A stretch of 64,000 bases of DNA from Acidimicrobiales bacterium (GTDB lineage Bacteria; Actinomycetota; Acidimicrobiia; Acidimicrobiales; Bog-793). The position numbers were made by a program, and so were the translations under genes. Below, piece by piece: positions 16,358 through 56,808 of the stretch (its first letter is position 1; each line of letters begins with the position of its first letter). The DNA is taken from assembly GCA_050013835.1 (NCBI GenBank), contig JBEKEM010000008.1, forward strand, positions 32,290 through 96,289, read 5' to 3'. The notes below the pieces were generated by a model. That model made no database searches and was not told the DNA's origin. It worked only from the letters and a program-made list of their open reading frames with translations.

Positions 16358-16366
16358 GAGGTCAAG

Positions 16367-17416: not shown

Positions 17417-17418
17417 TC

Positions 17419-19209: not shown

Positions 19210-20957
19210 CGACGGGAACGAGCGCCGGCCCGACGGGGCCGCGCCCCGCGGGCACGGGGGCGGGCCCGGCCGGGCAGCTGGGCCTCGCTCCACGCCGCCT
19301 CACCCGGGCGGTCGTGTCCGGCACGGCCAGTTCCGCCTGCGGCATCGGCCTCCTGGCGACCTCGGGATGGCTCATCACGCGGGCCGCCGGGCGGCCCCCC
19401 GTGTTCGTCCTCAGCGTCGCGATCGGGCTCGTTCAGGCGTTCGCCCTGGGGCGGGGCCTCGCCCGCTACTTCGAACGGCTCGGGGTCCACGACGTCTCCC
19501 TCGACGTCCTCGGCCGACTCCGGCTCCGCCTCTACGACACGCTCGAGCCGCTCGTCCCCGGGGGGCTCGGGGGGAGCGGCTCCGGCGCCGTGCTGAGCGG
19601 CTTCGTTTCCGACGCCGAGATCATGGCGACGGCCCACGCCAGGCGGGTCACCGCCGCGATCGACATCACGGCGAGCGTCGTCCTCGGGACCACCGTCGCG
19701 GCCGTCGTCGACCCGGGCGTCGGGGGGGCGCTCTGCGCCGGGGCGGTCACCATGGTCGTCGTCGCCTTCGCCCTCGCCCGGCCCGGCCGGGCCGGGGCCG
19801 CGCGCGAGGCGGCGGCCCGCACCGAGCTCGCCGATTCGGTCATCGACACGATGCGCGCCGCCCGCGAGCTCGTCGCCTTCGGCCGCGAAGACCTCGTCGC
19901 CGTCCGCCTCGAGGAGATCCGGCGGCGCTCGAACGCCGGAGCGGCCCGCCGCGCGGTGACCACGGGGATCGGCCGCGCCGGCGCGACGGTCACCGCCGCG
20001 GCCGGACTCGTCGCCGTCGTCGCCACCGGCATCGCCGTCCACGACGCCGGCCACCTCTCGGGGGTCATGCTCGCCGTCGAGGCCTTCGTCGCGCTCGCCG
20101 TCTACGACCAGTGCGCCGGCCTCCCCCCCGTACTCGCCGATGCGGGCGCCGCGGCGGCCGCCGCCCGCCGGCTCGGGTCGCTCGCCGCCCTCGAAGCCCC
20201 GGCTGCCGAGCCCGGCGCCGACGCCGGCCCGCCCGCCGGTGCCGTCGAGGTCGCCTTCGAGAACGTCGGGGTGACCCATGGGGCGACCGTCGCCCTCGAG
20301 GCCCTCTCGCTGCGGCTGCCGCCCGGACGGCGGCTCGCCCTCGTCGGGCGGAGCGGATCCGGAAAGACGAGCGCCCTCTACGCCCTGATGCACTTCGTCC
20401 GTTGCACGACAGGGCGGGCCTCGATCGGCGGGGTCGACGTGGCGACGATGACGCGGGCGGGCATCGCCCGTCACGTCGGCTGGATGGCCGACGTGACGCA
20501 CGTGTTCGCGACAAGCCTCGGTGACAACCTGCGCGTCGCCGACCCCACGGCCGACAACGCGGCCTGTGCCGCGGCCCTGGCGCGTGCCGGGTTGGCGGAC
20601 TGGCTCACCTCGCTGCCGGAGGGCCTCGCGACCGCGCTCGGCGCGGGGGGGAGGCCGATGAGCGCCGGGGAGCGCCAGCGGCTCGGCCTGGCCCGCGCCC
20701 TCCTCGCCGGGGGCGAGGTGCTCGCCCTCGACGAGCCGACGGCGCACATCGACCCGGCGTCGTCCGCCCATGTCCTCGACGAGCTCGTCCGGGCCACCGG
20801 GTCGAAGACGGTGCTCGTCATCAGCCACGAACCCGACCTCGACGACCTCGTCGACGAGGTCGTCACCCTCGACGGCGGGCGGGTCGTGGGCCACGAGGCG
20901 ACCGGGCGCGCGACCGGCGGCCCACCTGGCGGGGCCGGGGTGGCACCGGATCGCTGA
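19206..20957 (+). CDS. cydC: Thiol/heme ABC exporter subunit CydC
   Basis: LLATSGWLITRA, RYFERL..HD, GRSGSGKT, SAGERQR; ATGA overlap with cydD. Confidence 0.88.
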   Translation: MTTGTSAGPTGPRPAGTGAGPAGQLGLAPRRLTRAVVSGTASSACGIGLLATSGWLITRAAGRPPVFVLSVAIGLVQAFALGRGLARYFERLGVHDVSLDVLGRLRLRLYDTLEPLVPGGLGGSGSGAVLSGFVSDAEIMATAHARRVTAAIDITASVVLGTTVAAVVDPGVGGALCAGAVTMVVVAFALARPGRAGAAREAAARTELADSVIDTMRAARELVAFGREDLVAVRLEEIRRRSNAGAARRAVTTGIGRAGATVTAAAGLVAVVATGIAVHDAGHLSGVMLAVEAFVALAVYDQCAGLPPVLADAGAAAAAARRLGSLAALEAPAAEPGADAGPPAGAVEVAFENVGVTHGATVALEALSLRLPPGRRLALVGRSGSGKTSALYALMHFVRCTTGRASIGGVDVATMTRAGIARHVGWMADVTHVFATSLGDNLRVADPTADNAACAAALARAGLADWLTSLPEGLATALGAGGRPMSAGERQRLGLARALLAGGEVLALDEPTAHIDPASSAHVLDELVRATGSKTVLVISHEPDLDDLVDEVVTLDGGRVVGHEATGRATGGPPGGAGVAPDR

Positions 20958-21036: not shown

Positions 21037-21921
21037 TCAGGCCTCCGGCACCGTCGGGCTTGCCGCCGCCGTCCCGCCTCCGGCCGTCTGCGGCCTCGCC
21101 GGGATCTCGTAGACGCGGCTCACCGCGGCCAGGGTGAGCGAAGCGATGCCGAGCGCGAGCACGAACTCGGGGATGGACGTGCCAAGTCTCACACCGAGGA
21201 CCGTGTACGGCGGGCTGCCGAGCACGACCCCGCTCGCCACCGCCTGGCCGAGCGAGGCGAGGGCGGCCAGCCCCAGGCCGGCCGCGACGAACGGGAACTG
21301 GGGCGTTTTCACAACCGAGTTGGCGCGCGCCACAACGACGACGGCGAGGAGGAGGACGAACCCCGCGAACCCGAAGACGGCCTGCGTCACGCCCATGGCG
21401 GCGTCGCCGACGTCGAGGGGCGGCAGGCCCTGGCCAACGGCGATGAGCGCCAGGGCGCCGGCGGCACCGAGCCACATCGCGGCGAAACGCTCCTGCGCCG
21501 GATCGTCGTGCTCGACGAGGGAGCGCCGGACCGCCTTGACGGCGCAGAAGAGGAACCACCCGCCGATCCCGACGGCGGCGAGCACCTCCGCCGTCGTCTG
21601 CGAACCGTTCGAGTTCACGGCGCCGTCGAAGGCCCCGGCGGCGATCACGATCGTGGCGACGCTCATCGCCCCCGTTTCTCCGGCCGCCGCCCAGCGGCGA
21701 CCCATGCTCAGCGTCCACGTCATGGCGACCAGGGCGACAACGCCGACCGTCCACCCGGCGAAGTACATCCACGACGCCGCCGTGTTGAGGTTGTCGGCGG
21801 TCGTCATGTTGGACGAGATCAGCGTGAACGCCAACCCCTCGAGCGCGAGCCCCGCCGTCACGAGCGCGGCGGCGAGCCACACGATCAGCATCGCCACTCT
21901 GGACTTCGTCAGTTCGATCAT
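21037..21921 (-). CDS. Hypothetical multi-pass membrane protein
   Basis: About 8 hydrophobic helices; ATG at 21921 after GAGGA. Confidence 0.7.
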   Translation of the reverse strand: MIELTKSRVAMLIVWLAAALVTAGLALEGLAFTLISSNMTTADNLNTAASWMYFAGWTVGVVALVAMTWTLSMGRRWAAAGETGAMSVATIVIAAGAFDGAVNSNGSQTTAEVLAAVGIGGWFLFCAVKAVRRSLVEHDDPAQERFAAMWLGAAGALALIAVGQGLPPLDVGDAAMGVTQAVFGFAGFVLLLAVVVVARANSVVKTPQFPFVAAGLGLAALASLGQAVASGVVLGSPPYTVLGVRLGTSIPEFVLALGIASLTLAAVSRVYEIPARPQTAGGGTAAASPTVPEA

Positions 21922-22141
21922 GCGTCCTCGCTTCGCTGGACGGTCGAGCACCCTCAGCCTGGCGTACCGGGACGTGTCGCCCGGCGCGCCGAGTCTGCCA
22001 AAGATGCGGCGGATTGGGACGACCAGAGCGCAGGCACCTCGGTGGGACGGGCTTTGCGGTCCGATCGCACCGGCGGTAGAACGTTGGCCTGGCCGGTCGG
22101 ATTCTGGCCTGGTGACCGCCCCGCCGAAGGAGTCCCACCGG

Positions 22142-23335
22142 ATGCACCATCGGATCGTCATCGTCGGGGGCGGTACCGCCGGGATCACCATCGCGGCGCG
22201 GCTGCGCCGGGCCGGTGAGCGGGACGTCGCCCTCGTCGAACCGGCCTCCTCCCACTACTACCAACCGCTGTGGACCCTCGTCGGCGCCGGCATCGTCGCC
22301 GTCGGCAAGAGCCGGCGCAGCGAGGCCTCGGTCGTGCCGCGAGGCGTGCGCTGGGTGGCCGAGGCGGTCGCCGGCTTCGACCCCGACCGCCGCGAGGTGA
22401 CGACGGAGGACGGAACCCGCCTCTCCTACGACGTCCTGGTCTGCTGCCCCGGGCTCGAGCTCGCCTGGGACCTCGTGCCCGGGCTCGCCGAGGCGATGGC
22501 GACGCCGTACGCCTCGTCGAACTACACCTTCGGGCTCGCCCCCAAGACCGCCCGGCTGACCGAGGGTTTCGCCGGCGGCACGGCTCTCTTTTCGATGCCG
22601 GGCACGCCCATCAAGTGCAAGGGGGCGCCGCAGAAGGCCGCCTACCTCGCCTGCGATGCCTGGCGCCGCCGGGGGATGCTCGACCGCTGCGACGTCACCT
22701 TCGCCACGGGGGCCGATTCCCTGTTCTCGGTGCCGGAGTACGCCGCCGTCCTCGAGGGGGTCGCCGCCCGCTACGGGATCCGCACCCGGTTCTCGACCGA
22801 GCTCGTCGAGGTCGACCCCGGGGCGCGACTCGCCACCCTCGAGCGGCGCGGCCCGGAGGGCGGGAGCCGGGAAACGGTCACCTACGATCTGCTGCACGCC
22901 GCGCCACCCCAGCGCGCCCCGGCGTTCGTGCGCGCCAGCCCGCTCGCCGGTCCCGGCCCCCTCGGCTGGGTGCCGGTCGACCGCCACAGCCTGCGTCACA
23001 CCGTCTACCCGGAAGTCTTCTCCCTCGGCGACGTGTGCGACGCGCCGACCTCGAAGACCGGGGCGGCGGCCCGGGCCCAGGCGGCGGTCGTCGCCGAGGG
23101 CGTGGTCGCCACGCTCGAGGGACGCGAGCCCCCGGCGCGCTACGAGGGCTACACCGCCTGCCCGATCGTGACGGCGCGCCACAGGATGCTGCTCGCCGAG
23201 TGCGACTACGACCACAAGGCCCACCCGACGATCCCCTTCATCGACACCCGGCGCGAGCGCTACGACATGTGGCTGCTCAAGCGCTACGGATTGCCGGCCC
23301 TGTACTGGCACGTCGTCGTGCGCGGTCGCGGCTGA
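22142..23335 (+). CDS. sqr: Sulfide:quinone oxidoreductase, type II-like
   Basis: IVGGGTAG, HYYQPLWTLVGAG, KCKGAPQK and GYTACP (the two catalytic Cys motifs), KTGAA; AAGGAG RBS. Confidence 0.85.
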   Translation: MHHRIVIVGGGTAGITIAARLRRAGERDVALVEPASSHYYQPLWTLVGAGIVAVGKSRRSEASVVPRGVRWVAEAVAGFDPDRREVTTEDGTRLSYDVLVCCPGLELAWDLVPGLAEAMATPYASSNYTFGLAPKTARLTEGFAGGTALFSMPGTPIKCKGAPQKAAYLACDAWRRRGMLDRCDVTFATGADSLFSVPEYAAVLEGVAARYGIRTRFSTELVEVDPGARLATLERRGPEGGSRETVTYDLLHAAPPQRAPAFVRASPLAGPGPLGWVPVDRHSLRHTVYPEVFSLGDVCDAPTSKTGAAARAQAAVVAEGVVATLEGREPPARYEGYTACPIVTARHRMLLAECDYDHKAHPTIPFIDTRRERYDMWLLKRYGLPALYWHVVVRGRG

Positions 23336-23727
23336 TCCCGGGCCCGCCGGACCCAGGTCTCTTCGGCACGCAGTCTCCGCCGGCTGGCTGCGCGCCCGGT
23401 GCACGACACGAACGGGCGGTCGCGACCTCGACGTGAATCCCGCCGAGGACCTACTCGCCCAGACCCGCGCGGCGCGTTGGACACCCGAGTGGCGCCACCG
23501 CGATCGAGAACATGCCCGTTTCGCGAGGAAGAACGTCCAACTGAAGTCCCGCCCGACCAAGGTCCCCTGCGCGGCCCCGCGAAGGTCGACGCCTGGGCGC
23601 AGTCCCGGGTCGAGGCGATGAACCTCGACCCGATCGGCCGGATCCCCGGGCTGATCGGGCGGGCACAACCCGCGCTTTCGCGCTCAGCCGTCCAACGACC
23701 ACGCGCGGGCTCTTACCGACCAGCCAA

Positions 23728-24408
23728 CTAGGGCCGGTGCTCCCGGTCCCCGCCCCAGGCCCCCATCGAAAGCAGGCGGTCGCGGAAACCCGTCTCGTCC
23801 ATGATCGTGCGCATCTCGGCCGCGGCCTTCTCCGAGGGGAACATCGAGCCGAGGCCGAGCTCGGCGCGCAGGTCGTCGCGCCGCTCGATGAAGCGCCGCC
23901 ACTTCGGCCCGAGCGCCTCCACCCTGTCGGCGAAGAAGACCTGCGGGGTGCCGCCGATCCCCTTGTCGTAGAACTGCTCGGCCCAGGCGGCGAACATCTT
24001 CACGTGCTTGATCCCGTAACCCTGCTCGACCTGGAGCCCGCGGATGATCTGGTTGATGACCGCGACGGAGTTCCCCCGCGGGCACCGGCTCTGGCAGGTG
24101 TAGCAGTAGAAGCAGAGCCAGACGGTGTCGTCGGTGAGCAGCGTCGGGTCGCCGTCGAGGGCCCGGCGCACGATCTCGCGGGGCGAGTAGTCGCCGAAGC
24201 GCGCCGCCGGGCAGCCCGAGGTGCAGATCCCGCACTGCATGCAGGAGAGGAACCCCTCGACGTGGCCGTGCATGCGCGGGTCGTTGGCGATCCGCTCGGT
24301 GAGCTCGAGATGCGCCGCCGCGGGCTCGTGGAAGTTCGACTCGGCGATGACCGAGTAGGGATTCGTGTGCGTCGCAGCGACCTGCGCCGACTTCCCGGAA
24401 TCAGGCAT
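23728..24408 (-). CDS. hdrC: Heterodisulfide reductase subunit C (2x[4Fe-4S])
   Basis: CMQCGICTSGCP and WLCFYCYTCQSRCPRGN; last gene of the hdr operon. Confidence 0.88.
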   Translation of the reverse strand: MPDSGKSAQVAATHTNPYSVIAESNFHEPAAAHLELTERIANDPRMHGHVEGFLSCMQCGICTSGCPAARFGDYSPREIVRRALDGDPTLLTDDTVWLCFYCYTCQSRCPRGNSVAVINQIIRGLQVEQGYGIKHVKMFAAWAEQFYDKGIGGTPQVFFADRVEALGPKWRRFIERRDDLRAELGLGSMFPSEKAAAEMRTIMDETGFRDRLLSMGAWGGDREHRP

Positions 24409-25546
24409 CGGTCCCTCCCTGTCCATTCGATCGCGGGGCGGCCCGGAAGAACTCGGGCCAGAAGTAGGCCTCCACGCGGGGGTGCCGGCGCCTGGCGGCA
24501 CCACGCACGTTGTCCCGGCACAGCAGGCACGGCGTGACGATCGGGGCCCCCTCGGCCGCGGCGAACTCGAGGAGCCGCAGCACCTCCTCGCTCGGGCCCC
24601 GGTAGACACCGCCGAGCGCGCCGCAGCAGCCGGCGTGCAACGACCGGTACGTCGTCACGCACTCGGCGCCGGCGAGCTCGGCAGCCTCGGCGAGGAGCGC
24701 CAGCGCCCCGTCCCGGTCGGCGAGGCAGCCGATGTAGGGCACGAAGCGCGCGGCGCGCCCGGTGAGCCTGCGCCCGTCACGGCGGGCCTCCCCGACGAGG
24801 ACCTCCCACAGCGGCTTGGTCGAGATCCCGGCGTCGGCGAGCGAACGGTCGCAGGCCGGGCAGGCGGTCACGACCGACCCGGCGGCGGCGAGGCACGCCG
24901 GGGGGGCGGCGCCCGCCGGGTGGCCGCAACACCCCGCCCCGGCCGGTTCGCCCAGCTCGACCCCGAGCTCGGCTGCCAGCGACAACGTGCCCCGGTGGAG
25001 CGCCGGGTCCTGTTCGAGCGAGCAGCCGGCGTAAAAGAGCGCCGCCTCGCCTCGTGGCGGGGCCGGCCGGGGCGACCGCTGGAGGCGGCGGGCGACGCGG
25101 CGCGTCCCCTGGGAGGCCGCCTCGACCAGGTCGCCGGGGACGAAGCCCCGGACCGCCATCGCCACGCCGAAGGCGACGGCGTCGACTGTCGACTTCTTCG
25201 CCAGCCGGCGAGCGGCGATTCCCGCCGCGCCGCGCTCGGGGCAGCGGGGCCCGCCGAAGGCCTGCTGGAGCGAGCGCACCTCGGCCATCACGGCGGCGAC
25301 GTCGACCTCCATCGGGCAGGCCGTCGTGCAACTGCCGCACCCGCTGCACCGCCAGACGTCCTCGGACTCGAGCAGCCCTCCGACATCCCCCGCCAGGAGC
25401 TGCCGGACCACGCGGCGCGGCCCCTCGGCCATGTCGAGCCCCTGAGGACAGGCGCCCCGGCACTGGCCGCACTGGATGCACGGCCGGCAGCGCTCCGCGA
25501 CGGCCGCCACGGCGACGCGGGCCTCCTCGGTGGCGACGGCCGTCAC
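24401..25546 (-). CDS. HdrC/HdrB-like fusion (4Fe-4S dicluster plus two compact CCG domains)
   Basis: CIQCGQCRGACP, WRCSGCGSCTTACP, FYAGCS..CCG..TACPAC, PYIGC..CCG..TPCLLC; GTGA overlap with the upstream gene. Confidence 0.82.
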   Translation of the reverse strand: MTAVATEEARVAVAAVAERCRPCIQCGQCRGACPQGLDMAEGPRRVVRQLLAGDVGGLLESEDVWRCSGCGSCTTACPMEVDVAAVMAEVRSLQQAFGGPRCPERGAAGIAARRLAKKSTVDAVAFGVAMAVRGFVPGDLVEAASQGTRRVARRLQRSPRPAPPRGEAALFYAGCSLEQDPALHRGTLSLAAELGVELGEPAGAGCCGHPAGAAPPACLAAAGSVVTACPACDRSLADAGISTKPLWEVLVGEARRDGRRLTGRAARFVPYIGCLADRDGALALLAEAAELAGAECVTTYRSLHAGCCGALGGVYRGPSEEVLRLLEFAAAEGAPIVTPCLLCRDNVRGAARRRHPRVEAYFWPEFFRAAPRSNGQGGTDA

Positions 25547-27933
25547 GACGACCCCCCTCCGGTCCCCGGCGCCACGAGCCGGGTCCCCGTCTCCCCGTCG
25601 TCGGCGAGCTTCTCGGCGTGCGCGCAGAAGGTGCGCAGCCGGCGCCCGACGGTGTGTCGCTCGGCGGCGCACAGGTGCCACTGCTCGATCGGCACCGGGT
25701 TGCCCGCCTCGGCCAGGAGCTCGCGGGCCACGGCGACCTGTTCGGCGGCGCTGCCATCGCCGCTGCGGTAGTGGCAGCGTCCCTCGGCGCAACCGGCGAG
25801 AAAGACCCCCGCCGCACCGAGCCGCACCGCCTCGATGAGGTGCAGGGCGCTCACCCGGCCGAGGCAGGGCAGCTCCACGAGGCGGACGTTCTCCGGGTAG
25901 CGGTCGCGGCGGAGACCGGCGAGCGAGAAGGCGGCGCCGGCGCACTCGGCACAGACGAAGCCGACGACGGGATGGTCCGCCCCCTCGACGAGCGTGCGCA
26001 CCTGGCCGAGCAGCGTCGCGTCATCGAGGCGGTGGGCAATCGCCAGCTCCGGGCAGTGCGCCGCGCAGATCCCGCAGGAGCGGCAGAGGCGCGAGTCGAT
26101 CACCGCCAACAAGGCGTCGGGGCGCAGGCCGTCGGGGCGCGGGCCGTCGGGGCGCGGGATGAGGCTCGTCGCGCCGAACGGGCAGGCCCCCGTGCAGACG
26201 TCGCAGCCGACGCAGCGCGATTCGTCGATGCGTGGGGCGGCACCGCCGCGCCGGCCGGCGGATGTCAGGTAGCTGTGGACCTGGCCGGCGGTCGCCGAGG
26301 CCCCGGTCGAGCACTCGACAAGCGACTTCGGCCCGGAGGCGGAGCCGGCGACGAAGACCCCCTCGGCCGAGGTCTCGCTCGCCCGGTTCTTGGCGTCGAG
26401 GACGGCGACGAAGCCCGCCTCGTCAAGGCGCGCCCCCAACACACCGGCGATCCGCCCGGTGTCGCCGGCGGGCACGAATCCTGTCGAGAGCACGACGAGG
26501 TCCGGTCGCAGAAGCCGCTTCACCCCGGCGCCCGCGTCCTCGACCTCCACGACGGGCCGGTGGTCCGCGTCGAACTCGACCCGGGGTGGTGAACCGCGCA
26601 GGAACTCGACGCCGGCGAGGCGCGCCCTCGTGTACCAGCTCTCACCCTCAGCGCCGAGCGTGCGCAGTTCCAGGTAGCAGACCGTCACACGGGTCTGCGG
26701 GAAGAGCGTGCGCAGCCGGATGGCGTGCTTCAGGGCGATCGTGCAGCACAGCCTCGAGCAGTACGGCAGCCGTCGCAGGTCGCGCGACCCGGCGCACTGG
26801 ATCATGACGACGTCCCCGACCGGCGGCTGGTCCAACCACAGCCGCTCCTCCCAGTCGTCGAGCAACGGGGCGAACTCGGTCTGGGTGAGGACCGTCTCGG
26901 CGGGGTAGCCGAGGTGGGCGACGAGCTCGCCCGGAGCCGGGTCGCACCCGGTGGCGGCGACGATCGCGCCCGCCCGCAGGCGGGCGAGCTTCGGCGACTG
27001 GGTGAAGTCGATGGCCTCGACGGGGCAGGCCTCGGCGCAGGCACCGCAGAACGTGCAGTTCTCCAGGTCGACTGCCCAGCGGACACGGCCGTCGAACACC
27101 TCGCTGTAGATCGCCCGGCGCTCGCCGTCCGGGCCCGTCACCGGGCACGCCTTCTCGCACAACCCGCAGTCGACGCAGTCGGACGTCACCATGTTCGGCA
27201 GCTGCCGGAGCGTCACTTCGAACTCCCCCGGTTCCCCGGACACCGACTCGACCTCGGTGCGACGCCAGATCACCAGGTTCGGGTGGTCGACCGCGGCGTT
27301 GCGGTAGAGGCACTTGCGGACTCCGGACTGCTCCTCGACCGTCGGCAGGCACGCCCCGCAGTCGTTCGTCGGATAGGCGGTCCCGATCCGCGTCGCCCAG
27401 CCGCCGAGGAACGGCTGGCGCTCGACGAGGTCGACGTGATGGCCCATCCGCGCGAGTTCGGTCGCCGTCGCGATGCCGGCGACGCCACCGCCGACCACGA
27501 CGACCGAGTCGACCCGGTCCCGTCCCCCGGCCACCTCGGCCCGCGCGACCGGGAACCGCACGGCGGCGCGGGCGATACGCAGGGCCTTGTCGGTGACCTT
27601 CGCCCGGTCGTCACCATGGACCCAGGAGCAGCCCTCGCGGACGTCGGCCACGGCGAGCTCGAGTCCCCGCGAGACGAGCCGGCCGAAGCGCTGTGCCACG
27701 GAGTCGGCAGAGCAGCCGACGAAGACCAGGCGCTCGCCCGAGTCGTCCTCGGCCAACTCCGCGAGGCGCGCCTGGCCTTCGGCGCCGCACCACACCCGGT
27801 GGCGCTCGACGGCGCCCTCGGCGGCGAGTTCCCGCTCGATCACGCCGAAGTCGACATTCGACGCCATCGTCCCGGCGCACTCGCAGACGAGCAGGCGCGC
27901 CGGCGCGACCGGGGCGGTGTCGGCCGGGGTCAC
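25543..27933 (-). CDS. hdrA: HdrA-like flavoprotein fused to a C-terminal MvhD/FlpD domain
   Basis: VREGCSWVH, VVGGGVAG, YPTNDCGAC, IQCAGSRD..YCSRLCC, ferredoxin motifs; C-terminal FVCAECA, PCLGRV, AGCAEGRCHY. Confidence 0.88.
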   Translation of the reverse strand: MTPADTAPVAPARLLVCECAGTMASNVDFGVIERELAAEGAVERHRVWCGAEGQARLAELAEDDSGERLVFVGCSADSVAQRFGRLVSRGLELAVADVREGCSWVHGDDRAKVTDKALRIARAAVRFPVARAEVAGGRDRVDSVVVVGGGVAGIATATELARMGHHVDLVERQPFLGGWATRIGTAYPTNDCGACLPTVEEQSGVRKCLYRNAAVDHPNLVIWRRTEVESVSGEPGEFEVTLRQLPNMVTSDCVDCGLCEKACPVTGPDGERRAIYSEVFDGRVRWAVDLENCTFCGACAEACPVEAIDFTQSPKLARLRAGAIVAATGCDPAPGELVAHLGYPAETVLTQTEFAPLLDDWEERLWLDQPPVGDVVMIQCAGSRDLRRLPYCSRLCCTIALKHAIRLRTLFPQTRVTVCYLELRTLGAEGESWYTRARLAGVEFLRGSPPRVEFDADHRPVVEVEDAGAGVKRLLRPDLVVLSTGFVPAGDTGRIAGVLGARLDEAGFVAVLDAKNRASETSAEGVFVAGSASGPKSLVECSTGASATAGQVHSYLTSAGRRGGAAPRIDESRCVGCDVCTGACPFGATSLIPRPDGPRPDGLRPDALLAVIDSRLCRSCGICAAHCPELAIAHRLDDATLLGQVRTLVEGADHPVVGFVCAECAGAAFSLAGLRRDRYPENVRLVELPCLGRVSALHLIEAVRLGAAGVFLAGCAEGRCHYRSGDGSAAEQVAVARELLAEAGNPVPIEQWHLCAAERHTVGRRLRTFCAHAEKLADDGETGTRLVAPGTGGGSS

Positions 27934-28382
27934 GCCGGCACCGCCGACAGGGACTCGGCGACCACGTGGCGGGCACCGATCTCGTCCCCACCGACGGGCC
28001 GCGCCGCCACCGCGCCGGTCGGGCAGGCGCGCGTGCAGGCCCCGCAACCGAGGCATCTCCCACGATCGAACTCGATCGTGCGGAAGGTGCGGACCCGTTC
28101 GGGGACCTCGAACGGACCGTCCGGCTCGTGGCGGGCGATCCTCCGCAGCGCCGCGCCAAGGGCGCCCCTGGTCGTCCCGGGGGGAGCGTCGAAGAGCTGG
28201 GCGGGATCGAAGAGCGAGCTCTCGGCGATGGCACCGCTCGGGCAGGCCTTGACGCAGCGGCCGCAACCGATGCAGAGCTCATCGAGACGGACGATCTCGC
28301 AGCCGATCCCGTCGGTCGTGGTGACGGGCGCGACCCCCGGCAACGATCCCAGGATCTCCCGGCCGCGCGCGGTGAGGGGCAT
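27930..28382 (-). CDS. 2x[4Fe-4S] ferredoxin-like protein
   Basis: CIGCGRCVKACP and CLGCGACTRACP. Confidence 0.85.
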   Translation of the reverse strand: MPLTARGREILGSLPGVAPVTTTDGIGCEIVRLDELCIGCGRCVKACPSGAIAESSLFDPAQLFDAPPGTTRGALGAALRRIARHEPDGPFEVPERVRTFRTIEFDRGRCLGCGACTRACPTGAVAARPVGGDEIGARHVVAESLSAVPA

Positions 28383-28385
28383 CGC

Positions 28386-28847
28386 CTAGCGCCTCCCCAG
28401 CCGGGGCAGGCCCGAGATCGTGGCGTGCATCTGGCGCGTCGCGGCGACGAAGCGGGGTGAATCCGCCGCGCTCATGGTGAACATCTGGACGCGCTCGGGT
28501 TCCACCCCCACGGAGGCGAGCAGCCGTTGCACAAAGGCGACGCGGTCGATCGCCGAGAGGTTCCCCTCCCGGTGGTGGCACTGGCCCTCGAGGCAACCGG
28601 CCAGGAAGACGCCGTCGGCACCCTCGGCGAGCGCGCTCAGCACGTGCAGGGGACCGACCCGGCCCGTGCACGGCACGAGCACGCTGCGTACCGTCGCGGG
28701 GAGGGGGATGCGGGCGTTCCCGGTCGCGTCGGCGGCGGCGTAGGCGCACTCCCGGCAGAAAAAGCCGATGATCGTCCGCTCGTCGTCGCCGTCCGCCTCG
28801 GCGTCGTCGGTCACCCGCGCGGCTCTGGCCGTCGCCGCGCTAGGCAC
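28386..28847 (-). CDS. mvhD: MvhD/FlpD [2Fe-2S] subunit
   Basis: GFFCRECAYAAAD, VPCTGRV, GADGVFLAGCLEGQCHH.EGN. Confidence 0.9.
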   Translation of the reverse strand: MPSAATARAARVTDDAEADGDDERTIIGFFCRECAYAAADATGNARIPLPATVRSVLVPCTGRVGPLHVLSALAEGADGVFLAGCLEGQCHHREGNLSAIDRVAFVQRLLASVGVEPERVQMFTMSAADSPRFVAATRQMHATISGLPRLGRR

Positions 28848-31800
28848 CGGCCGTCACCTCGGCGAGGATCTCGGCGTCGGAGAAGCCCCCGAGCGTCATC
28901 GCCCCCGACGGGCATTCGGCGACGCAGATGCCACACCCCCGGCAGCTCTCCAGCTCGACCACGGCGTGGGTGGCCCCGTCCTCGACGAGGTGCACGGCGG
29001 ACTGGGGGCAGACGTTCTCACACACGCCACAGCCGATGCAGACCGCGGGATCGGACCAGGCGACCTCGGCGGGGGTCATCAGGAACCCGCTCGACAGCAT
29101 CGACATCACCCGGGCGGCGGCGGCCTTGGCCTGGGCGATCGTGTCCGGGATGTTCTTCGGACCCTGGGCCGTCCCGGCGAGGAAGACGCCGGCCCGCTGG
29201 GAGTCCACCGGGCGGAGCTTGGGGTGGTGCTCCTTCAGGAAGCCCGCCGCGTCCTGCTGGAGGCCCACCACCCGGGCGATCTGCGCCGTCCCCTCCGAGC
29301 CCTCGAGCCCGGCAGACAACACGACGAGGTCGAACAGCTCCTCGGACTTGCTCCCGGTCACGGTGTCCTCGAAGCGGACGCGGAGCCGCTTGTCCCGCTC
29401 CTCGATGAGCTCGCCGACGCGAGTACGCACGTAGCGCACGCCGCGGGTCGAGACCAGCCGGAAGTACTCCTCGTGCGCCTTGCCGGGGGCGCGCAGGTCG
29501 GTGTAGCCGATGGTGACCTCGCACTCCGGGTGGTCCTGCTTGATGAGTGAGGCGTGGACCGTGGCGAACAGGCAGCAGATCGCGGAGCAGTGCGTGTTGC
29601 CCCGCGAGGTCTGGTCGCGTGAGCCGACGCACTGCAGCATGAGGATCCGCTTCGGCACGGTTCCGTCCGAGGGCCGCCGCAGCTCGCCGCCGGTCGGACC
29701 CGAGGCGGAGACGAGCCGCGCCAGCTGGCTCTGGGTGATGACGTTGGCGTAGCGGCCGTAGCCGAGCGGCGGCTTGCGCCGGGCGTCGAATTCGCGGTGC
29801 CCCGTCGCGAGCACCATCGCCCCGACCGTCAGCTCCTCCTCCCACGGCTCCTGGTCGAAATCGATGGCGTGGGCGGGGCAGACCGTCTCGCAGGAACGGC
29901 ACTCCGAGCAGCCGCCGCAAGCGAGGCAGCGCCTGGCCTCGGCGACGGCGTCAGCATCGTCGTAGCCGTCGTGCACCTCGGCCCAGGAACTGCGTCGCCT
30001 TCCGCCGTCGGTGACTCGCATCGGCCGGCGCCATTCGGGCCTGCCGGTGGGGAGGGTGGTGTCCTTCACGACGGCCACCGGTCGGACCGGCTCCCAGACC
30101 TCGGCCCAGTCCTCCCCGCGTAGGTAGTTGTGGATCGCTCTCGCGGCGCGTCTGCCGGCCGCGATCGCCTCGATCGAGGTGGCGGAGGCGGCGGCGTCCC
30201 CCGCCGCGAAGACGCCTGGGCGGTCGGTCATCAGCGTCGCCCGGTCGGTCGCGATCTGGCCGTCCGCGACCCGGACACCGGAGGCGCCCGACAGGAACTC
30301 TTCGTCGATCTCCCGCTCGGCGGCGAGCACGACGTGGTCCGCTGTCAGCTCGACAATCTCGGCGTCTGGACCCCGCCGGAACCGGACGGCGTTCACGGCG
30401 TCGGCCCCCACGAGCTCGACGGGCGCGATGCCACCGACGACCTCGACCCCCTCGTCCACGGCCTCGGCGACGAGGCCGGGCCGGGCCGGCAGCTTCGCCG
30501 CGTCCTCGGCGGCGGCGACGGTCACCGACTCCGCCCCGAGCCGAAGGCAGGTGCGGGCGGCGTCGAAGGCGATGCCACCACCGCCCAGGACGACGACGTG
30601 CCGACCGACCTCGACCGGTTGGCCGAGCGCCCGGCTCCGCAACAGGTCGAGCGCCGAGACGACGCCGCGCCGGTCACTCGTGCCGAGCGGCGTCGAACCG
30701 GGACGCTGCAGCCCGACGGCGAGCAGCACCGCCTGGAAGCCGGAGGCGAGAAGCGAATCCACCGTGAAGTCGGCTCCGCATCGCTGGCCGACCTGAAGCT
30801 CGACACCGTGGGCGAGCACGCGGGCGACCTCGGCCGCGATGAGCTCCCGGGGCAGGCGGAACTCCGGGATGGCGAGGCGAAGCATCCCGCCCGCTTCCGG
30901 CTGGGCCTCGAAGACGGTGACCTGGTAGCCGAACCGGGCGAGCTCGCGCGCCGCTGTGAGTCCTGCCGGTCCTGCGCCGACGACGGCCGCCTTCTCGGCG
31001 TACACAGCCGGCGGCACCACGACGGGCGGCGCCGCCGCCACTTGGTCGGCGAGGAAGCGCCCGATGCCGGCGATGGCGACCGGCTCGTCGACCCGCCCGC
31101 GGGTGCACGCGGTCTCGCAGTCGTGGACGCAGATCCGGCCGCAGACGCTCGGGAACGGGTTCTCCCTGCTCGCCAGCTCGTACGCCTCGCCGGTCCGCCC
31201 CTGCGAGACGAGGGCGACGCACCCCTGGGCCGCCGTGTGCACGGTACAGGCCGCCGTGCACGGCGCCTGACCGCGGTAGTCGATGGCGAAACCGGCGGGG
31301 ACCGCGTTGGCGAACGGTCGGCCGATCGCCTTGCGCTTCGCCATCCCGAAATCGAAGGCACTCTCGAGCTCGACCGGGCAGGCCGCCGTGCACCGGCCAC
31401 AGGCGACGCAACGCTCGGAGACGAAGCTTGGCCGGTGGAGCACGCGCACTCGCAGCTCGCCGGGTGGCCCACTCACGGCGGTCACCTCCGACAGCGTGTG
31501 GATGTGGATGCGCGAGTCGGTGGCGGCGTTGGCGAGCCGAGGCGCCAGCGAGCACATCGCACAGTCCTCGGTCGGGAAGGTCTTGGAAAGGCGGGCCATG
31601 TAGCCGCCGAGCGACTGCTCGCGCTCCACGAGGTGCACTTCGATCCCGGCGTCGGCGAGTTCCTCCGCGGCGGACATCCCCCCGATCCCGCCACCCACGA
31701 CGACCGCCGAACGGTGCAGGAACGTCCGGGACCGCTTCAGGTCCGACTGCTGGGCCGCCCGCGCGATCGCCGCGGCGAGGATCGTCTCGGCCTTCCGCTG

Positions 31801-32133
31801 GGCCTTGGCGGGCTCGTCGCGGTGGACGAACGAGCAGCCCTCACGCAGGTTGGCGAAGGCGACCGCGTTCTCACCCAGCCGAAGCTCGCGGGCGATGCGC
31901 TCGAACGTCGGGCCCTGGACGCGGCGCGAGCAGGCGCCGATCACGACGTGGTCGAGCCCGCGCGACTGCACGGCCCGCTCGATGCGCCGCCGACCCTCGG
32001 TGCCGCACATGAACTGGCTCACCGAAACGTTGACGACGCCGGGTAGGGCGCGCCCGCCGGCGGCGAGCGACCTGAGGTCCAGGACGTCGGAGATGTTTCC
32101 CCCGCACTCGCAAAGGAACACGCCGCAGCGCGT
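28840..32133 (-). CDS. hdrA: Large HdrA (HdrL-like) with an inserted GltD-type NAD(P)H-binding flavoprotein module
   Basis: GVFLCECG, NLREGCSFVH, KTFPTEDCAMC; insert with NPFPSVCGRICVHDCE..C.R and VVGAGPAGL; LQCVGSRD. Probable start is ACG at 32133 (first canonical start is GTG at 32121). Confidence 0.9.
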   Translation of the reverse strand, partial: TRCGVFLCECGGNISDVLDLRSLAAGGRALPGVVNVSVSQFMCGTEGRRRIERAVQSRGLDHVVIGACSRRVQGPTFERIARELRLGENAVAFANLREGCSFVHRDEPAKAQRKAETILAAAIARAAQQSDLKRSRTFLHRSAVVVGGGIGGMSAAEELADAGIEVHLVEREQSLGGYMARLSKTFPTEDCAMCSLAPRLANAATDSRIHIHTLSEVTAVSGPPGELRVRVLHRPSFVSERCVACGRCTAACPVELESAFDFGMAKRKAIGRPFANAVPAGFAIDYRGQAPCTAACTVHTAAQGCVALVSQGRTGEAYELASRENPFPSVCGRICVHDCETACTRGRVDEPVAIAGIGRFLADQVAAAPPVVVPPAVYAEKAAVVGAGPAGLTAARELARFGYQVTVFEAQPEAGGMLRLAIPEFRLPRELIAAEVARVLAHGVELQVGQRCGADFTVDSLLASGFQAVLLAVGLQRPGSTPLGTSDRRGVVSALDLLRSRALGQPVEVGRHVVVLGGGGIAFDAARTCLRLGAESVTVAAAEDAAKLPARPGLVAEAVDEGVEVVGGIAPVELVGADAVNAVRFRRGPDAEIVELTADHVVLAAEREIDEEFLSGASGVRVADGQIATDRATLMTDRPGVFAAGDAAASATSIEAIAAGRRAARAIHNYLRGEDWAEVWEPVRPVAVVKDTTLPTGRPEWRRPMRVTDGGRRRSSWAEVHDGYDDADAVAEARRCLACGGCSECRSCETVCPAHAIDFDQEPWEEELTVGAMVLATGHREFDARRKPPLGYGRYANVITQSQLARLVSASGPTGGELRRPSDGTVPKRILMLQCVGSRDQTSRGNTHCSAICCLFATVHASLIKQDHPECEVTIGYTDLRAPGKAHEEYFRLVSTRGVRYVRTRVGELIEERDKRLRVRFEDTVTGSKSEELFDLVVLSAGLEGSEGTAQIARVVGLQQDAAGFLKEHHPKLRPVDSQRAGVFLAGTAQGPKNIPDTIAQAKAAAARVMSMLSSGFLMTPAEVAWSDPAVCIGCGVCENVCPQSAVHLVEDGATHAVVELESCRGCGICVAECPSGAMTLGGFSDAEILAEVTAGA

Positions 32134-32147
32134 CGGTCACTCCTTCC

Positions 32148-33110
32148 CTAGGGGGCTGTTACGTTCGCACGCGGGCGGGCGCCAACCCGCTCGAGGATCG
32201 GCTCGAGGTTCTGGGAGTGCGACTCGACCCCGCAGACCGTGTCAGGGTCCGCCCCCAGGGCGAGCGCCACGAGCTGCTGCACGTGGAGGTGAACGAAGGG
32301 GTACTCCTCCCCGGTCGCGCTGGAGATGGCGTCGTGGTAGCGGTCGAACTGGACCGAGCAGTTGGGGCACATGTGCACGAGGACGTCGATCCCCTCTTCG
32401 GCCAGGCGCTTCAGCTTCTCCCGGGTGACGGCGAGCGAGCGGGAGGGGTTGACGAAGATCTGGCGGAATCCGGCGCCGCAATGGGTCGTCTTCTCGGCGT
32501 AGTTGCCGGTCTTGATGACGCCGGTCGGCTCGAGCAGATCCTCGGGCAGCATGAAGTTCTCGCTGTCGCCGAGGACCTCGTCGGGGAAGACCTTGCAGTA
32601 GTGGCAGGCCGGGTGGGTGGCGACCTTGATGCCCGAGAGCCGGCGGCGGATGAGGTCGGGGATCTGCTTGTGCCGGCTCCAGAGGACCTCGAGGCTGTGC
32701 CGGTGCTGGATCGTGCCGGCGATGGCGTCGTCGTAACGGCGGCCGATCTTCACGAGCGTCTCGTTGGCCTGTTTGCGGTATTCGGGGACGTTGAGCACGT
32801 CGCGGGACTTCTTGTTGATGGCGTAGCAGGTCGAGCACATGTACGCCTGGACTGGGTGGTCTGCCTCGACTGCCACGCAGGCGTTGCGGGCCGCGACGGC
32901 GAGCGTGGTCTGGAACGGCATGAGGTCGGAGTAGTAGCCGAGACCGGTGCAGCAGGTCTGGTCGGTGTTGACCGTGTACTCCACGTCGAGCCGCTCAAAG
33001 AGCCACTTCGTGGAGGCCTCGACGCCCGGGTACTCCGTCGAGACGAGACAACTCCGGAAGAGCTGGACCCCACCCGTGATGGGCGCGATGTCAGGCGTGG
33101 TCTGGGGAAT
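32148..33110 (-). CDS. hdrB: Heterodisulfide reductase subunit B (two CCG domains)
   Basis: LFRSCLVSTEYPGVE, QTCCTG, CSTC, HPACHY, HCGAG, CPNCSVQFD. The frame is open upstream of the listed GTG (32984) to a probable ATT start at 33110. Confidence 0.88.
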   Translation of the reverse strand: MPQTTPDIAPITGGVQLFRSCLVSTEYPGVEASTKWLFERLDVEYTVNTDQTCCTGLGYYSDLMPFQTTLAVAARNACVAVEADHPVQAYMCSTCYAINKKSRDVLNVPEYRKQANETLVKIGRRYDDAIAGTIQHRHSLEVLWSRHKQIPDLIRRRLSGIKVATHPACHYCKVFPDEVLGDSENFMLPEDLLEPTGVIKTGNYAEKTTHCGAGFRQIFVNPSRSLAVTREKLKRLAEEGIDVLVHMCPNCSVQFDRYHDAISSATGEEYPFVHLHVQQLVALALGADPDTVCGVESHSQNLEPILERVGARPRANVTAP

Positions 33111-33115
33111 GCCCC

Positions 33116-33156
33116 TTACTAAACCAAATCAATGGAGCTTGTCAAGTTAATCACGG
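33116..33156 (-). promoter_or_regulatory. Putative hdr operon promoter: -35 TTGACA (33140-33145) overlapped by a Rex/CRP-like palindrome (33139-33156)
   Basis: AT-rich patch; plus strand TTGTCAA-GTTA-ATCACGG. The -10 element is imperfect (TTTAGT or TAGTAA). Confidence 0.55.
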
Positions 33157-33311
33157 TGACAGCAGCCGGAGGTCCAATCCACAGGGCTCTGCCAGGACTT
33201 TTACATCCGTCACGTCGTGGGCGGGACGGCGCGCTACCGCCGGTCGGGCCTTTGCGTGCACCCCGTCACAACGGGCGGAACCGGCGCGGTTCGCCCGGGG
33301 CGACCAACGGA

Positions 33312-33337
33312 CAATCCCTGCGGGCCCCCGGGCCGTA
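33312..33337 (+). promoter_or_regulatory. Putative SigK-type ECF promoter CAATCC-N15-CCGTA
   Basis: Resembles my recollection of the mycobacterial SigK consensus CCATCC-N15-CCGAA; lies upstream of the gene preceding the ECF sigma factor. Confidence 0.5.
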
Positions 33338-33382
33338 TCCCCTGCGACGGATCGGAACCGACCCGGCAAACGAGGAGACCCG

Positions 33383-33973
33383 ATGACAGGTTCCACGACA
33401 AGCATGCTGCGGGCCGAGAGGCCCTCGACCGCGGACCGCCGGCGACGCAACCTCGCCGGCTCGGCCGTGGTGGTCGCCGCGATGGTCCTCACCGTTCTCG
33501 TGACCAACGCGGGCGCCGCGCCACGGCAGTCGCCGCCCCCGCGTCCCGCGACGCGGCAGGCGCACCCGGTGATCATCGACTCGGCCAAGCACGGCTCGCT
33601 CGGCGTGATCCTTGTCACCAGTGGCCATTACACGCTCTACTACGACAAGGCCGACACGCCGAGCAAGATCGCCTGCACCGGAGGATGCACCCAGATCTGG
33701 CCGCCGATCCTGCTGCCCAAGGGCGTCAGCTCCGCCACGGCGGGACCGGGCGTGGCCCAGAAATCCCTCGGCGTCGTGCACCGGGGACCGGGCAAACTCC
33801 AGGTCACCTACGCGGGGCACCCGCTCTACCGCTTCGTGCAGGACGCCGCCCCGGGGCAGGTGAAAGGTGAGGGCGTCGGGGGCTTTTACGTCGTCAAGGC
33901 GGACTTGAAGAAGGCTTCGTCGTCGGGCGGCGGCGGCTCGACCACGACGACGCCTTACGGCCGTGGGTACTGA
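33383..33973 (+). CDS. Secreted protein, COG4315/Lipoprotein_15-like
   Basis: TLYYDK.D, C.GGC...WPP, QVTYAGHPLYRF..D..PG...GEG. Confidence 0.85.
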   Translation: MTGSTTSMLRAERPSTADRRRRNLAGSAVVVAAMVLTVLVTNAGAAPRQSPPPRPATRQAHPVIIDSAKHGSLGVILVTSGHYTLYYDKADTPSKIACTGGCTQIWPPILLPKGVSSATAGPGVAQKSLGVVHRGPGKLQVTYAGHPLYRFVQDAAPGQVKGEGVGGFYVVKADLKKASSSGGGGSTTTTPYGRGY

Positions 33974-55939: not shown

Positions 55940-56121
55940 CGGGGTCATTGCGGCGTTCTTCCCACCACGGGGCGGGCAGGCGCCCGAAACGCTCGAGGTC
56001 GGCCCGCCGACGGGCTTCGGTGGCGGCCACCTTGACCTCCAACAGATGGCATGTGGCGGGGACCCCCTCCGCTCGGGTACACGATGCGTGTACTTGTAGT
56101 CAGGAGCCACAGGAGGTCCCC

Positions 56122-56550
56122 ATGGGGATCGTATGTGGGCTGGACATCCACCGCGCCCAGATCACGTTCGACTACATCGATCTGCGCACTGGCGAGGAGG
56201 GACGGGACGTGATCCGTCCCGCCACCCGTGCGGAGTTCCGATCCTTCCTCGAACGATTCAGGAAGAGACACGCCGCGTTCGCGCTCGAGGGCACGACCGG
56301 ATGGCGTGTCGTCATCGAGGAGCTGTGCCGGGCCGGGATGGATCCCCACCACGCGGAGCCCGCGGAGACCTCGTCCCAGCGGGGACCGAAACGCCGCGCC
56401 AAGACCGATCGGGCCGACGCCCGGCTGCTCCGCGACCTGCTGTTGATCGATCGTCTCCCCGAGTGCTGGATCCCATCTGATCACGTCGCGGACCTGCGAA
56501 CCACGGCGCGGCTCCGCAAGGCCCTCGTCGGCGAGCGCTCCAGCTGGCTT
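56122..56550 (+). mobile_element. IS110-family transposase fragment (N-terminal DEDD domain only)
   Basis: GLDIH, ALEGT, KTDRADA; AGGAGG RBS. Similarity is lost near 56550 and the ORF stops at 56643. Confidence 0.85.
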
Positions 56551-56637
56551 GCCCGCAGCTGTCCGTGTCCCCAGCCTGCGAACGTGTTCTCGTTTGACGA
56601 GGTAGCGGTGGAATCAGACGACGAGACGGACGACGAG

Positions 56638-56808
56638 TCATGACCATGCAGCGTGGTACCTATGGGGAACCGTTTCTCGGCGCACACTTCGCGATTCCTT
56701 TGTTGCACCTCGGAGCATCCCGATCACCAGAACTCGCTGGGCGAACAAGAACGCGATGAGAGGGGGGATCGCGGCCAGAGTTGCCACCGTCAACTCCGGG
56801 TGGAGCAT
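56638..56808 (-). pseudogene. Orphan C-terminal fragment of a sugar ABC permease
   Basis: HPELTVATLAAIPPLIAFLFAQRVLVIGMLRGATKE matches the adjacent permease C-terminus RPELAMATLIAIAPVLLVFLFAQRTLVSGMLAGSTKE. Confidence 0.75.

Follow-up and report, generated by a model that had tools for sequence, protein, structure and literature searches.

Electron-bifurcating enzymes of the heterodisulfide reductase (Hdr) type are usually taken to indicate a methanogen, an acetogen or a sulfate reducer. What, then, does a self-contained, seven-gene version of such an enzyme do in abundant, uncultured lineages of peat and soil that are non-methanogenic and mostly without DsrC? The question is raised by an operon on the minus strand of a 64,000-nucleotide stretch of DNA (the window; contig C8, JBEKEM010000008.1, positions 32,290 to 96,289), which belongs to a 17-contig, 2.06-Mb metagenome-assembled genome (MAG) of Acidimicrobiia from peat with a completeness of 94.6%. 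We propose, with moderate confidence, that the operon encodes a single soluble cytoplasmic complex of the HdrABC kind, with several flavins and iron-sulfur clusters, linking NAD(H), a low-potential ferredoxin and a thiol/disulfide couple by flavin-based electron bifurcation or confurcation.

Using a list of open reading frames (ORFs) and a filter on GC content at third codon positions (GC3), we found seven consecutive, tightly coupled genes running from 33110 to 23728, all on the minus strand and in the order and at the coordinates given by a first-pass annotation of the same DNA. In transcription order these are hdrB (32148..33110, 320 amino acids (aa); two Pfam CCG domains, a match to NCBIfam NF041780 and an alignment to 5odc_B), hdrL, a type III hdrA (28840..32121, 1093 aa; Pfam, NCBIfam and PDB matches), mvhD, a [2Fe-2S] adaptor (28386..28847, 153 aa; Pfam FlpD, 1e-40), a 2x[4Fe-4S] ferredoxin gene (27930..28382, 150 aa; two Pfam Fer4 motifs), an hdrA-mvhD fusion resembling HdrA2 or type Ia (25543..27933, 796 aa; NF040770, FlpD and PDB matches), an HdrD-like hdrC/B fusion (24401..25546, 381 aa; Pfam Fer4_17 and CCG, and an AlphaFold model) and hdrC (23728..24408, 226 aa, 2x[4Fe-4S]; Pfam Fer4_8 and NF041890 hdrC_Methbact). 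The intergenic gaps measure 26, -8, 3, -4, -4 and -8 nt: the mvhD start overlaps the hdrL stop by 8 nt, the GTGA start of hdrA-mvhD overlaps the ferredoxin stop, and the hdrC start overlaps the stop of the HdrD-like gene by 8 nt. No in-frame stop codon, and hence no selenocysteine, interrupts any of these genes. Their GC3 of 0.89-0.97 is similar to that of neighbouring genes, in a window whose GC content is high throughout (0.61-0.78 per 2 kb). Pfam scans of the operon proteins detected no membrane domain, and the HdrB and HdrC motifs quoted in the annotation were all found in the translations. The annotation had also reported no hydrogenase, formate dehydrogenase or Flx gene, and none occurred among the scanned ORFs of the window, which come from a GC3-filtered, non-exhaustive gene call.

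That the operon is real and not a chance arrangement was confirmed by related loci. A scan with one genome per species yielded 151 encoding stretches. Of the best 80, 58 have the complete set of seven genes in this order and 10 have just hdrB and hdrC; in the other 12, the contig ends within the locus. The iron-sulfur cysteines are conserved throughout, at all cluster-ligating positions, across 52-80 orthologous sequences from five phyla.

Which Hdr family do the catalytic subunits belong to? The annotation had described HdrB and HdrC as methanogen-like and distinct from sHdr, and family scores, a tree, common motifs and a separate sHdr-LbpA locus in the same genome all bear this out. HdrB scores 342.5 bits against NF041780 (cut-off 450), as against 122.9 bits for the sHdrB1 encoded elsewhere in its own genome, to which it is 33% identical; it aligns over its full length with methanogen HdrB 5odc_B (E 2e-40) and also matches, more weakly, the NCBIfam models of the SdhE-type fumarate reductase anchor and LdhH. 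For HdrC the best score is to NF041890 hdrC_Methbact (204 bits, cut-off 270), where the genome's own sHdrC1 reaches 69 bits. In a search that covered 1.84 billion cluster representatives exhaustively, the operon HdrB orthogroup forms a single 50% cluster, and its nearest full-length neighbour outside is a representative, P0124, that is 43% identical and whose relatives are named as HdrB of Methanosphaera, Methanobacterium and Methanobrevibacter. An equivalog scan covering 61 proteins (the genome's sHdrB1 and 60 of 119 full-length representatives) put P0124 above the NF041780 cut-off (492 vs 450) and five other representatives above that of TIGR03288, the classical methanogen HdrB family. A phylogeny of HdrB with methanogen and sHdr sequences (quick IQ-TREE run, LG+G4, 68 rows, rooted on the genome's own sHdrB1) placed the operon family (9 rows, SH-aLRT 100) as sister to P0124 (SH-aLRT 97), that is, to the Methanobacteriales NF041780-type clade, and apart from the clade with the TIGR03288 rows. 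The motifs LF(R/K)SCLVS.EYPGVE, CCTGLG, CHYCKV, (H/T)CG.GFRQ and MCPNC..QFDRY are common to the operon HdrB and this methanogen sister clade.

The cluster ligands of HdrB are invariant. C21, C53, C54, C92 and C95 of the first non-cubane site and C169, C172, C211, C248 and C251 of the second are each present in 80 of 80 sequences; at the second CCG motif, H210 stands where the CC pair would begin, C172 is an additional cysteine, and the methanogen sister clade carries the same HC variant or a TC variant. In HdrC, eight cysteines are conserved in 66/66 sequences. Of the contacts named for the solved enzyme in PMC13261682, G46 and R240 align with G58 and R257, which are kept, while R14 aligns with E26; this last change does not by itself exclude the methanogen substrate, since the methanogen sister clade has the same substitution. 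We had mapped three contacts by hand (R14 to E26, G198 to F215 and R201 to I218; PMC13261682, accessible text) as evidence against that substrate, and withdrew the argument on finding that the sister clade shares the changes.

The separate sHdr-LbpA locus is a canonical type II one, on contig C3 (57.5-73 kb, locus L097). It encodes DsrE, HdrC1, HdrB1, a 356-aa HdrA, a hypothetical protein, an HdrC2/B2 fusion and two lipoate ligases, followed in the inventory by two radical S-adenosylmethionine (SAM) proteins, two GcvH-like LbpA, EtfBA, an 800-aa HdrD-like protein and DsrE. The likeness to the operon lies in the presence of HdrA, HdrB and HdrC homologues in a bacterium of an aerobe lineage; the sHdr HdrA, however, is short and lacks the ferredoxin and MvhD parts, and the sHdr layout (hdrC1-hdrB1-hdrA-hyp-hdrC2-hdrB2 with lbpA, lipoate-assembly and DsrE/TusA genes) occurs neither in the operon nor beside it. 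Genes resembling cysK and cysE precede the locus on C3.

The electron entry is best read from HdrL. Its Pfam profile combines HdrA-type flavin adenine dinucleotide (FAD) and Fe-S domains with Fer4_20 and Pyr_redox_2, a GltD-like module, at about residues 283-754, and three dinucleotide-binding motifs lie at 139-173, 378-413 and 506-542. The match to methanogen HdrA in PDB (536 bits) falls into two stretches, and residues 282-756 match 9bov_A, NfnA 9n5u_A, NfnB 4ylf_B, GltD and related chains. The insert sits between C238-C248 and C732-C748, the two halves of the inserted ferredoxin domain; the Fe-S cysteines are conserved in 54-56 of 56 sequences. HdrL thus has the traits of a type III HdrA, namely a GltD/NfnB-like insert flanked by HdrA and an mvhD gene directly after it, with an NCBIfam HdrA score of 682 bits (cut-off 1100). 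An NAD(P)H module within the large HdrA had been claimed in the annotation; the module stands, and its specificity can be narrowed. On the strand after the GGGNTAMD loop, the window protein reads VTVAAAED where NfnB-type chains end in YRR(T/S), a motif which we take to be the 2'-phosphate (NADPH) site of this enzyme family. By the Rossmann-fold rule, an acidic ending goes with a preference for NADH. Because AAAED replaces the YRR motif, NADH and not NADPH is the predicted nucleotide in this genome. Over residues 503-548, 27 of 56 HdrL sequences have the acidic ending (the window genus, Dormibacterota, Chloroflexota, Binatota and part of Thermoleophilia), 28 have YRR or HRR with a five-residue insert, and one has neither. 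Judged by these motifs, the window HdrL should prefer NADH and the YRR half of the family NADPH.

The remaining subunits supply a full set of relay and head modules. Both HdrA paralogues align along the solved HdrA, with its FAD, N-terminal cluster, and inserted and C-terminal ferredoxin domains, the inserted one being interrupted in HdrL and whole in HdrA-MvhD (C253-C263 and C293-C303). The latter matches NF040770 HdrA2 over its full length (452 bits, cut-off 1100) and 5odc_A in PDB (266 bits); its C-terminal fusion is marked by FlpD at 656-776 and MvhD chains at 655-757, and its cysteines are conserved in 53-54 of 54 sequences. Free MvhD keeps five cysteines in 62/62 sequences and the ferredoxin nine in 61-62/62. 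What the annotation had called an hdrC/B fusion is indeed a fusion and can be specified as an HdrD-type protein: ferredoxin-type cysteines (C23/26/29/33 and C67/70/73/77) and CCG cysteines (C175/206/207/229/232 and C274/307/308/340/343), the latter forming two canonical CX(n)CCX(n)CXXC motifs, are present in 52/52 sequences. Its AlphaFold model (pLDDT 81.8, from a 27-sequence alignment) matches M. smegmatis EtfD best, then LutA, and also HdrB and HdrC chains. HdrB and the HdrD-like protein each carry ten conserved cluster cysteines, in agreement with the two distinct thiol/disulfide sites that the annotation had suggested, and by its residues the operon is predicted to hold two complete, chemically different active-site modules of the disulfide type.

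Genome context gives the setting in which such a complex would work. The MAG encodes three POR_N genes, one of them a 1228-aa pyruvate:ferredoxin oxidoreductase (PFOR), and a sulfhydrogenase-like [NiFe] hydrogenase cluster, group-3b-like and of NAD(P) type (contig C7, 63.6-73 kb, locus L099), divergent from an adjoining three-subunit 2-oxoacid:ferredoxin oxidoreductase (OFOR). The L099 cluster consists of a Fer4_22 subunit, an NAD_binding_1 subunit, the large subunit, a HycI protease and HypC, with a DUF6390 protein after it. Complex I is represented by NuoH, and cytochrome bd lies in the window. Searches of this 94.6% complete genome did not find the heme-copper oxidase COX1, Rnf or DsrC, nor ComA (phosphosulfolactate synthase), other routes to coenzyme M (CoM) and the synthesis of coenzyme B (CoB) lying outside the search; the best match to MshC, an enzyme of mycothiol synthesis, reaches 406 bits against a cut-off of 485. 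COX1 was found in 0/9 genomes of the genus (G000-G008, 88-94% complete) versus 32/32 other genomes of the family and order (G009-G040), a lack that counts as a single event because the genus genomes are kin. They are also smaller, at 1.9-2.5 Mb, the others having mostly 2.4-5 Mb. The genus looks like a low-oxygen offshoot of the Acidimicrobiales that has kept only cytochrome bd.

How might the parts work together? The core would be a heterodimer of two unequal HdrA paralogues, HdrL and HdrA-MvhD. HdrL would exchange hydride with NAD(H) at the inserted GltD/NfnB-like FAD, and its module would hand single electrons through two [4Fe-4S] clusters to the HdrA-type FAD, the putative site of bifurcation or confurcation. 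The intact inserted ferredoxin domain of HdrA-MvhD, together with the operon's own ferredoxin, would form the low-potential exit or entry, and electrons may be relayed between the halves by the free MvhD and the fused one. High-potential electrons would pass to two chemically distinct disulfide heads: HdrBC, whose second site is a variant, and the HdrD-like protein, both of whose sites are canonical. The likeliest substrate is a disulfide that several soil phyla have in common, either a small molecule or one bound to a carrier. For the organism of the window, the most plausible task is to balance NADH against a ferredoxin pool supplied by PFOR and OFOR, in a genome where Rnf was not found. What the data show are the gene content, cofactor motifs, conservation, phylogenetic placement and genome context; complex formation, bifurcation, its direction and the substrate are inferred. 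In favour of such a complex we count the domain and cofactor inventory, the conserved cysteines, translational coupling, the fixed order in 58/80 loci and the methanogen-sister HdrB. The position of the GltD insert in HdrL, which matches published type III HdrA and ANME-1 HdrA-NfnB fusions, is counted on the same side. So are the AAAED replacement in HdrL, the full-length alignment of HdrB to a solved structure, and the genome's own POR_N genes, group-3b-like hydrogenase and cydABDC, together with the searches that did not find Rnf in it or COX1 in any of the nine genus genomes.

Several points weigh against this proposal. With common thiols at about -230 mV, NADH-driven reduction of ferredoxin is thermodynamically tight, as we estimate on the basis of textbook potentials. 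In HdrB, the second CCG site departs from the canonical form, with HC in place of CC. Every subunit scored against NCBIfam lies below its equivalog cut-off, and because all scores do so, we do not file the subunits as those of a CoB-CoM reductase. At 94.6% completeness, a gene not found in the genome is not thereby absent from the organism. No RNA run is among the listed runs that contain operon DNA; window DNA occurs in 24 listed DNA sequencing runs, from peat and wetland metagenomes. COX1 is present in 14 of 30 operon-bearing genomes of other lineages, which shows that the operon is not confined to anaerobes. Finally, co-occurrence with POR, which we had considered as evidence (29/30 operon-bearing genomes), is uninformative, 39/41 relatives having POR regardless.

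A different reading of the heads is that the substrate is a sulfur carrier or protein-bound species (a DsrC/TusE-like trisulfide, a TusA/DsrE persulfide or LbpA lipoamide) or polysulfide, which would make the operon part of sulfur metabolism. The genome's own sHdr-LbpA-DsrE locus speaks for it, as do an SQR-like (sulfide:quinone reductase-like) gene of type III convergent to the operon and one hdrBC-only locus that adjoins TauE, rhodanese and TPMT-like methyltransferase genes; moreover, PMC5947623 reports detection of the HdrABC/HdrL proteins of Syntrophobacter under sulfate conditions alone, with DsrC as the proposed substrate. Yet DsrC, not found in this genome, occurs in only 7/30 operon-bearing genomes and an sHdrA orthologue in only 2/30, the SQR-like gene is intact in only 2/7 loci of the genus, and no gene for a sulfur carrier accompanies the operon consistently from phylum to phylum. 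We consider this reading improbable.

We are similarly doubtful that the operon encodes a ferredoxin:NAD(P)+ oxidoreductase, a transhydrogenase-like balancer whose CCG modules act on quinone or an organic acid, or store electrons, and not on a free disulfide. The two best structural matches of the HdrD-like model, mycobacterial EtfD and then LutA, are CCG proteins neither of which reduces heterodisulfides, and the weaker NCBIfam matches of HdrB to the SdhE-type anchor and LdhH point the same way. The lack of an Rnf match in the genome would suit such a role, and no thiol-cofactor gene is linked to the operon in the comparison of flanking ORFs. Set against this, neither head has lost any of the ten cysteines of its two non-cubane clusters, which cleave the disulfide in the solved enzyme (PMC13261682, accessible text). 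HdrB is moreover full-length and closest to genuine methanogen HdrB, and Pfam scans gave no membrane domain.

A bolder form of the proposed bifurcating complex would have the two HdrA flavins, the NfnB-type flavin and the two heads perform two coupled NADH-driven bifurcations on a novel low-molecular-weight thiol/disulfide pair. This would amount to a CoM/CoB-like cycle outside methane metabolism, shared by Actinomycetota, Dormibacterota, Chloroflexota and others in peat and soil and acquired together with methanogen-type HdrBC; we think it a long shot. A true CoM-S-S-CoB heterodisulfide reductase, as in the methanogen sister clade, is very improbable: the sister position to the NF041780 clade, named ferredoxin:CoB-CoM heterodisulfide reductase HdrB by NCBI, the motifs in common with it and the kept G58 and R257 favour it, but HdrB stays below the equivalog cut-off (343 vs 450), ComA was not found in the genome, and the hosts are bacteria of five phyla in which CoB is not known to occur.

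The operon proved recurrent but patchy in its distribution. A word-indexed protein search with HdrB returned 420 proteins, the best 120 all 68-90% identical, and across the five phyla operon HdrB is >68% identical. By record label, the 58 full operons belong to Thermoleophilia (29), 'Actinomycetes' (12), Acidimicrobiia (7), unclassified Actinomycetota (4), Dormibacterota (2), Chloroflexota (2), Binatota (1) and Planctomycetota (1). Within Actinomycetota, an orthologue (E <= 1e-80) was present in one genome of an even sample of 400 others, and the operon is accordingly rare across the phylum. It occurs in 7/8 other genomes of the window's genus, with HdrB 87-92% identical, and was found in none of 16 other genera of the family, where HdrB gave only sHdrB-like matches of about 1e-27 to 1e-33. 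The patchy occurrence across phyla combined with high identity points to horizontal spread, and presence throughout the genus together with host-like GC3 would date the acquisition before the genus radiated, much as the annotation had argued from codon use for an old, GC-adapted transfer. The relatives with an HdrB 86-92% identical to that of the window are MAGs of Acidimicrobiaceae and Acidimicrobiales from bog, peat and Danish soils, so that the source is actinobacterial, as had been supposed. The ten loci with hdrB and hdrC only (L017, L022, L026, L027, L030, L031, L035, L036, L037 and L039) have HdrB 74-79% identical and no HdrA nearby. Several of these pairs share a genome or contig with a full operon (L020/L022, L033/L035, L038/L039), and two (L017, L022) adjoin genes for TauE, a TPMT-like methyltransferase and rhodanese.

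Where does the operon begin? The annotation ended hdrB at 33110; the ATG of homologues does align there, but the codon is ATT, not a canonical start. ATG, GTG and TTG are all missing from the frame upstream of 32984. The aligned codon is ATT, ATC or ATA in 8/8 genomes of the genus and ATG in Dormibacterota homologues (MPHTTPD...), with an in-frame stop 4-7 codons upstream in the genus genomes (loci L009-L015). By this comparison, ATT is the probable start, and hdrB could use a near-cognate codon, perhaps on a leaderless or very short-leader mRNA. Directly before it on the minus strand lies an AT-rich element (33111..33160), TTAACTTGACAAG...ATTGATTTGATTAAGTAAG, which is nearly invariant across 8 genus genomes and contains a perfect TTGACA at 33145-33140. 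A promoter function of this element is only suggested; a consensus scan of 23200-33500 gave no sigma-70 promoter.

No accessory gene is attached to the operon across phyla, as judged by clustering the flanking ORFs of the 80 loci. Thermoleophilia loci have hemE-hemH-hemY upstream, which we read as lineage synteny and not as function; the idea that this hemE is an MtaA-type methyltransferase was rejected, hemE passing its own cut-off. In 15 loci of the Thermoleophilia type (L028, L041, L044 and L058 among them), hdrB is immediately preceded, on its own strand, by an ORF of about 470-540 aa that matches nothing in Pfam or NCBIfam. At L028 the upstream region also contains a radical SAM gene resembling HydE (313 bits, cut-off 254.6), and no [FeFe] hydrogenase was seen in that locus. 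In the window, the flanks hold cydA, cydB, two ATP-binding cassette (ABC) transporter genes, an extracytoplasmic function (ECF) sigma/anti-sigma pair, a P-type ATPase, transporters and transposase fragments. The cydA-cydB pair and the two ABC-transporter genes (14975-20957, plus strand) are convergent to the operon and end 2.8 kb from the hdrC stop; by position the latter two are probably cydDC, Pfam giving ABC transporter domains only. The SQR-like gene (22142-23335, plus strand) is convergent to hdrC and scores 195 bits against NF049943 (cut-off 525); it is intact in 2/7 loci of the genus and fragmentary in two others. Next to it, about 1 kb at 21037-22191 with a GC3 of about 0.94 is open on both strands (21134-22141 plus, 21037-22191 minus) and has no Pfam match. 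At the right end of the window, where GC content is lower (0.61-0.66), lie an IS110-family transposase fragment (55948-56643) and a Mu-transposase C-terminal fragment (61645-62124).

If the proposed complex is a generator of ferredoxin driven by NADH, or works in reverse, low-oxygen soil Actinomycetota and Dormibacterota would have in it a main means of redox balance, and its substrate would point to a not-yet-recognised thiol cofactor or carrier in these hosts. The split of HdrL into NADH-like and NADPH-like forms and the HC variant of HdrB are concrete, testable features. A caution also follows for wetland metagenomes, in which hdr genes should not be scored as methanogenesis potential.

How does the operon compare with known systems? 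The FlxABCD-HdrABC complex of Desulfovibrio is likewise NADH-linked and without hydrogenase, and takes in NADH through separate Flx subunits, whereas here the NAD(H) module lies inside the HdrA polypeptide and no Flx-type genes occur in the operon or the scanned window ORFs. Class II benzoyl-CoA reductase (Bam) combines an AOR-type BamB and NuoEFG-like BamGHI with Hdr-like subunits; neither AOR-type BamB nor NuoEFG-like domains were found in the operon or its flanks. HdrA, HdrB, HdrC and MvhD have the same folds here as in MvhAGD-HdrABC of hydrogenotrophic methanogens (PDB 5ODC, 8RVU), with every Fe-S and FAD site in common, but that complex has a hydrogenase and the operon none, and the operon HdrB falls outside the TIGR03288-type clade, with HC against CC at the second CCG site. 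From the Methanobacteriales NF041780-type HdrB it differs in being only 41-43% identical, below the family cut-off and in bacterial hosts. HdrA2B2C2 of Methanosarcina acetivorans (type Ia), with F420H2 as electron donor in the accessible text of PMC5296606, also has HdrA fused to MvhD and works with HdrB and HdrC without hydrogenase; it is, however, F420-linked, and the operon encodes no F420 module and its HdrA-MvhD scores 452 against the NF040770 cut-off of 1100.

Other systems are built on HdrL. In Desulfobacterium autotrophicum HRM2, the accessible text of PMC2702500 defines HdrL, an HdrA/glutamate-synthase fusion with an NADH site, and MvhD, the gene of which follows; the operon has the same succession of a large fusion of this type and mvhD. 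The D. autotrophicum proteins are partly selenoproteins encoded beside dsr or fdh genes, whereas the operon has neither selenocysteine nor such neighbours. Type III HdrA of ANME-1 and Bathyarchaeia (HdrA9-11) has an NfnB insert in the same layout as HdrL, and NAD(P)H as carrier and heterodimers of HdrA paralogues were proposed for it, according to the accessible parts of PMC12054007 and PMC9012536. Those proteins are archaeal, in a CoM/CoB context, with GXGXXG reported; HdrL has GXGXXA, and its family is split between acidic and YRR endings. A cluster with the same kinds of parts is HdrABC/HdrL of Syntrophobacter fumaroxidans (Sfum_0819-0824), comprising HdrA, HdrB, HdrC, an Fe-S protein, MvhD and HdrL, seen by proteomics under sulfate conditions and proposed to confurcate or bifurcate (PMC5947623, accessible text). 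Compared by description only, all six gene kinds are co-located in the operon as well, and the hydrogenase catalytic subunit is missing in both. The accessible description, though, is of six genes in another order, with neither an HdrD-like head nor an HdrA-MvhD fusion reported, both of which the operon has; its host, moreover, is a sulfate reducer with abundant DsrC, which was not found in the window genome. For the Desulfobacterium, Syntrophobacter and ANME-1/Bathyarchaeia cases, the accessible texts mention no purification of the HdrL form (PMC2702500, PMC5947623, PMC12054007, PMC9012536). A literature search outside subscription papers found no paper on the operon in Actinomycetota, Dormibacterota or peat, and the supplements of PMC9012536 and PMC12054007 may list bacterial homologues. 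Taken as a whole, the building blocks are already published: HdrL, type III HdrA and the Syntrophobacter HdrABC/HdrL cluster. Particular to the operon are the fixed seven-gene set with its HdrD-type head, the methanogen-sister HdrBC, the HC variant, the NADH/NADPH split and the hosts in which it is found.

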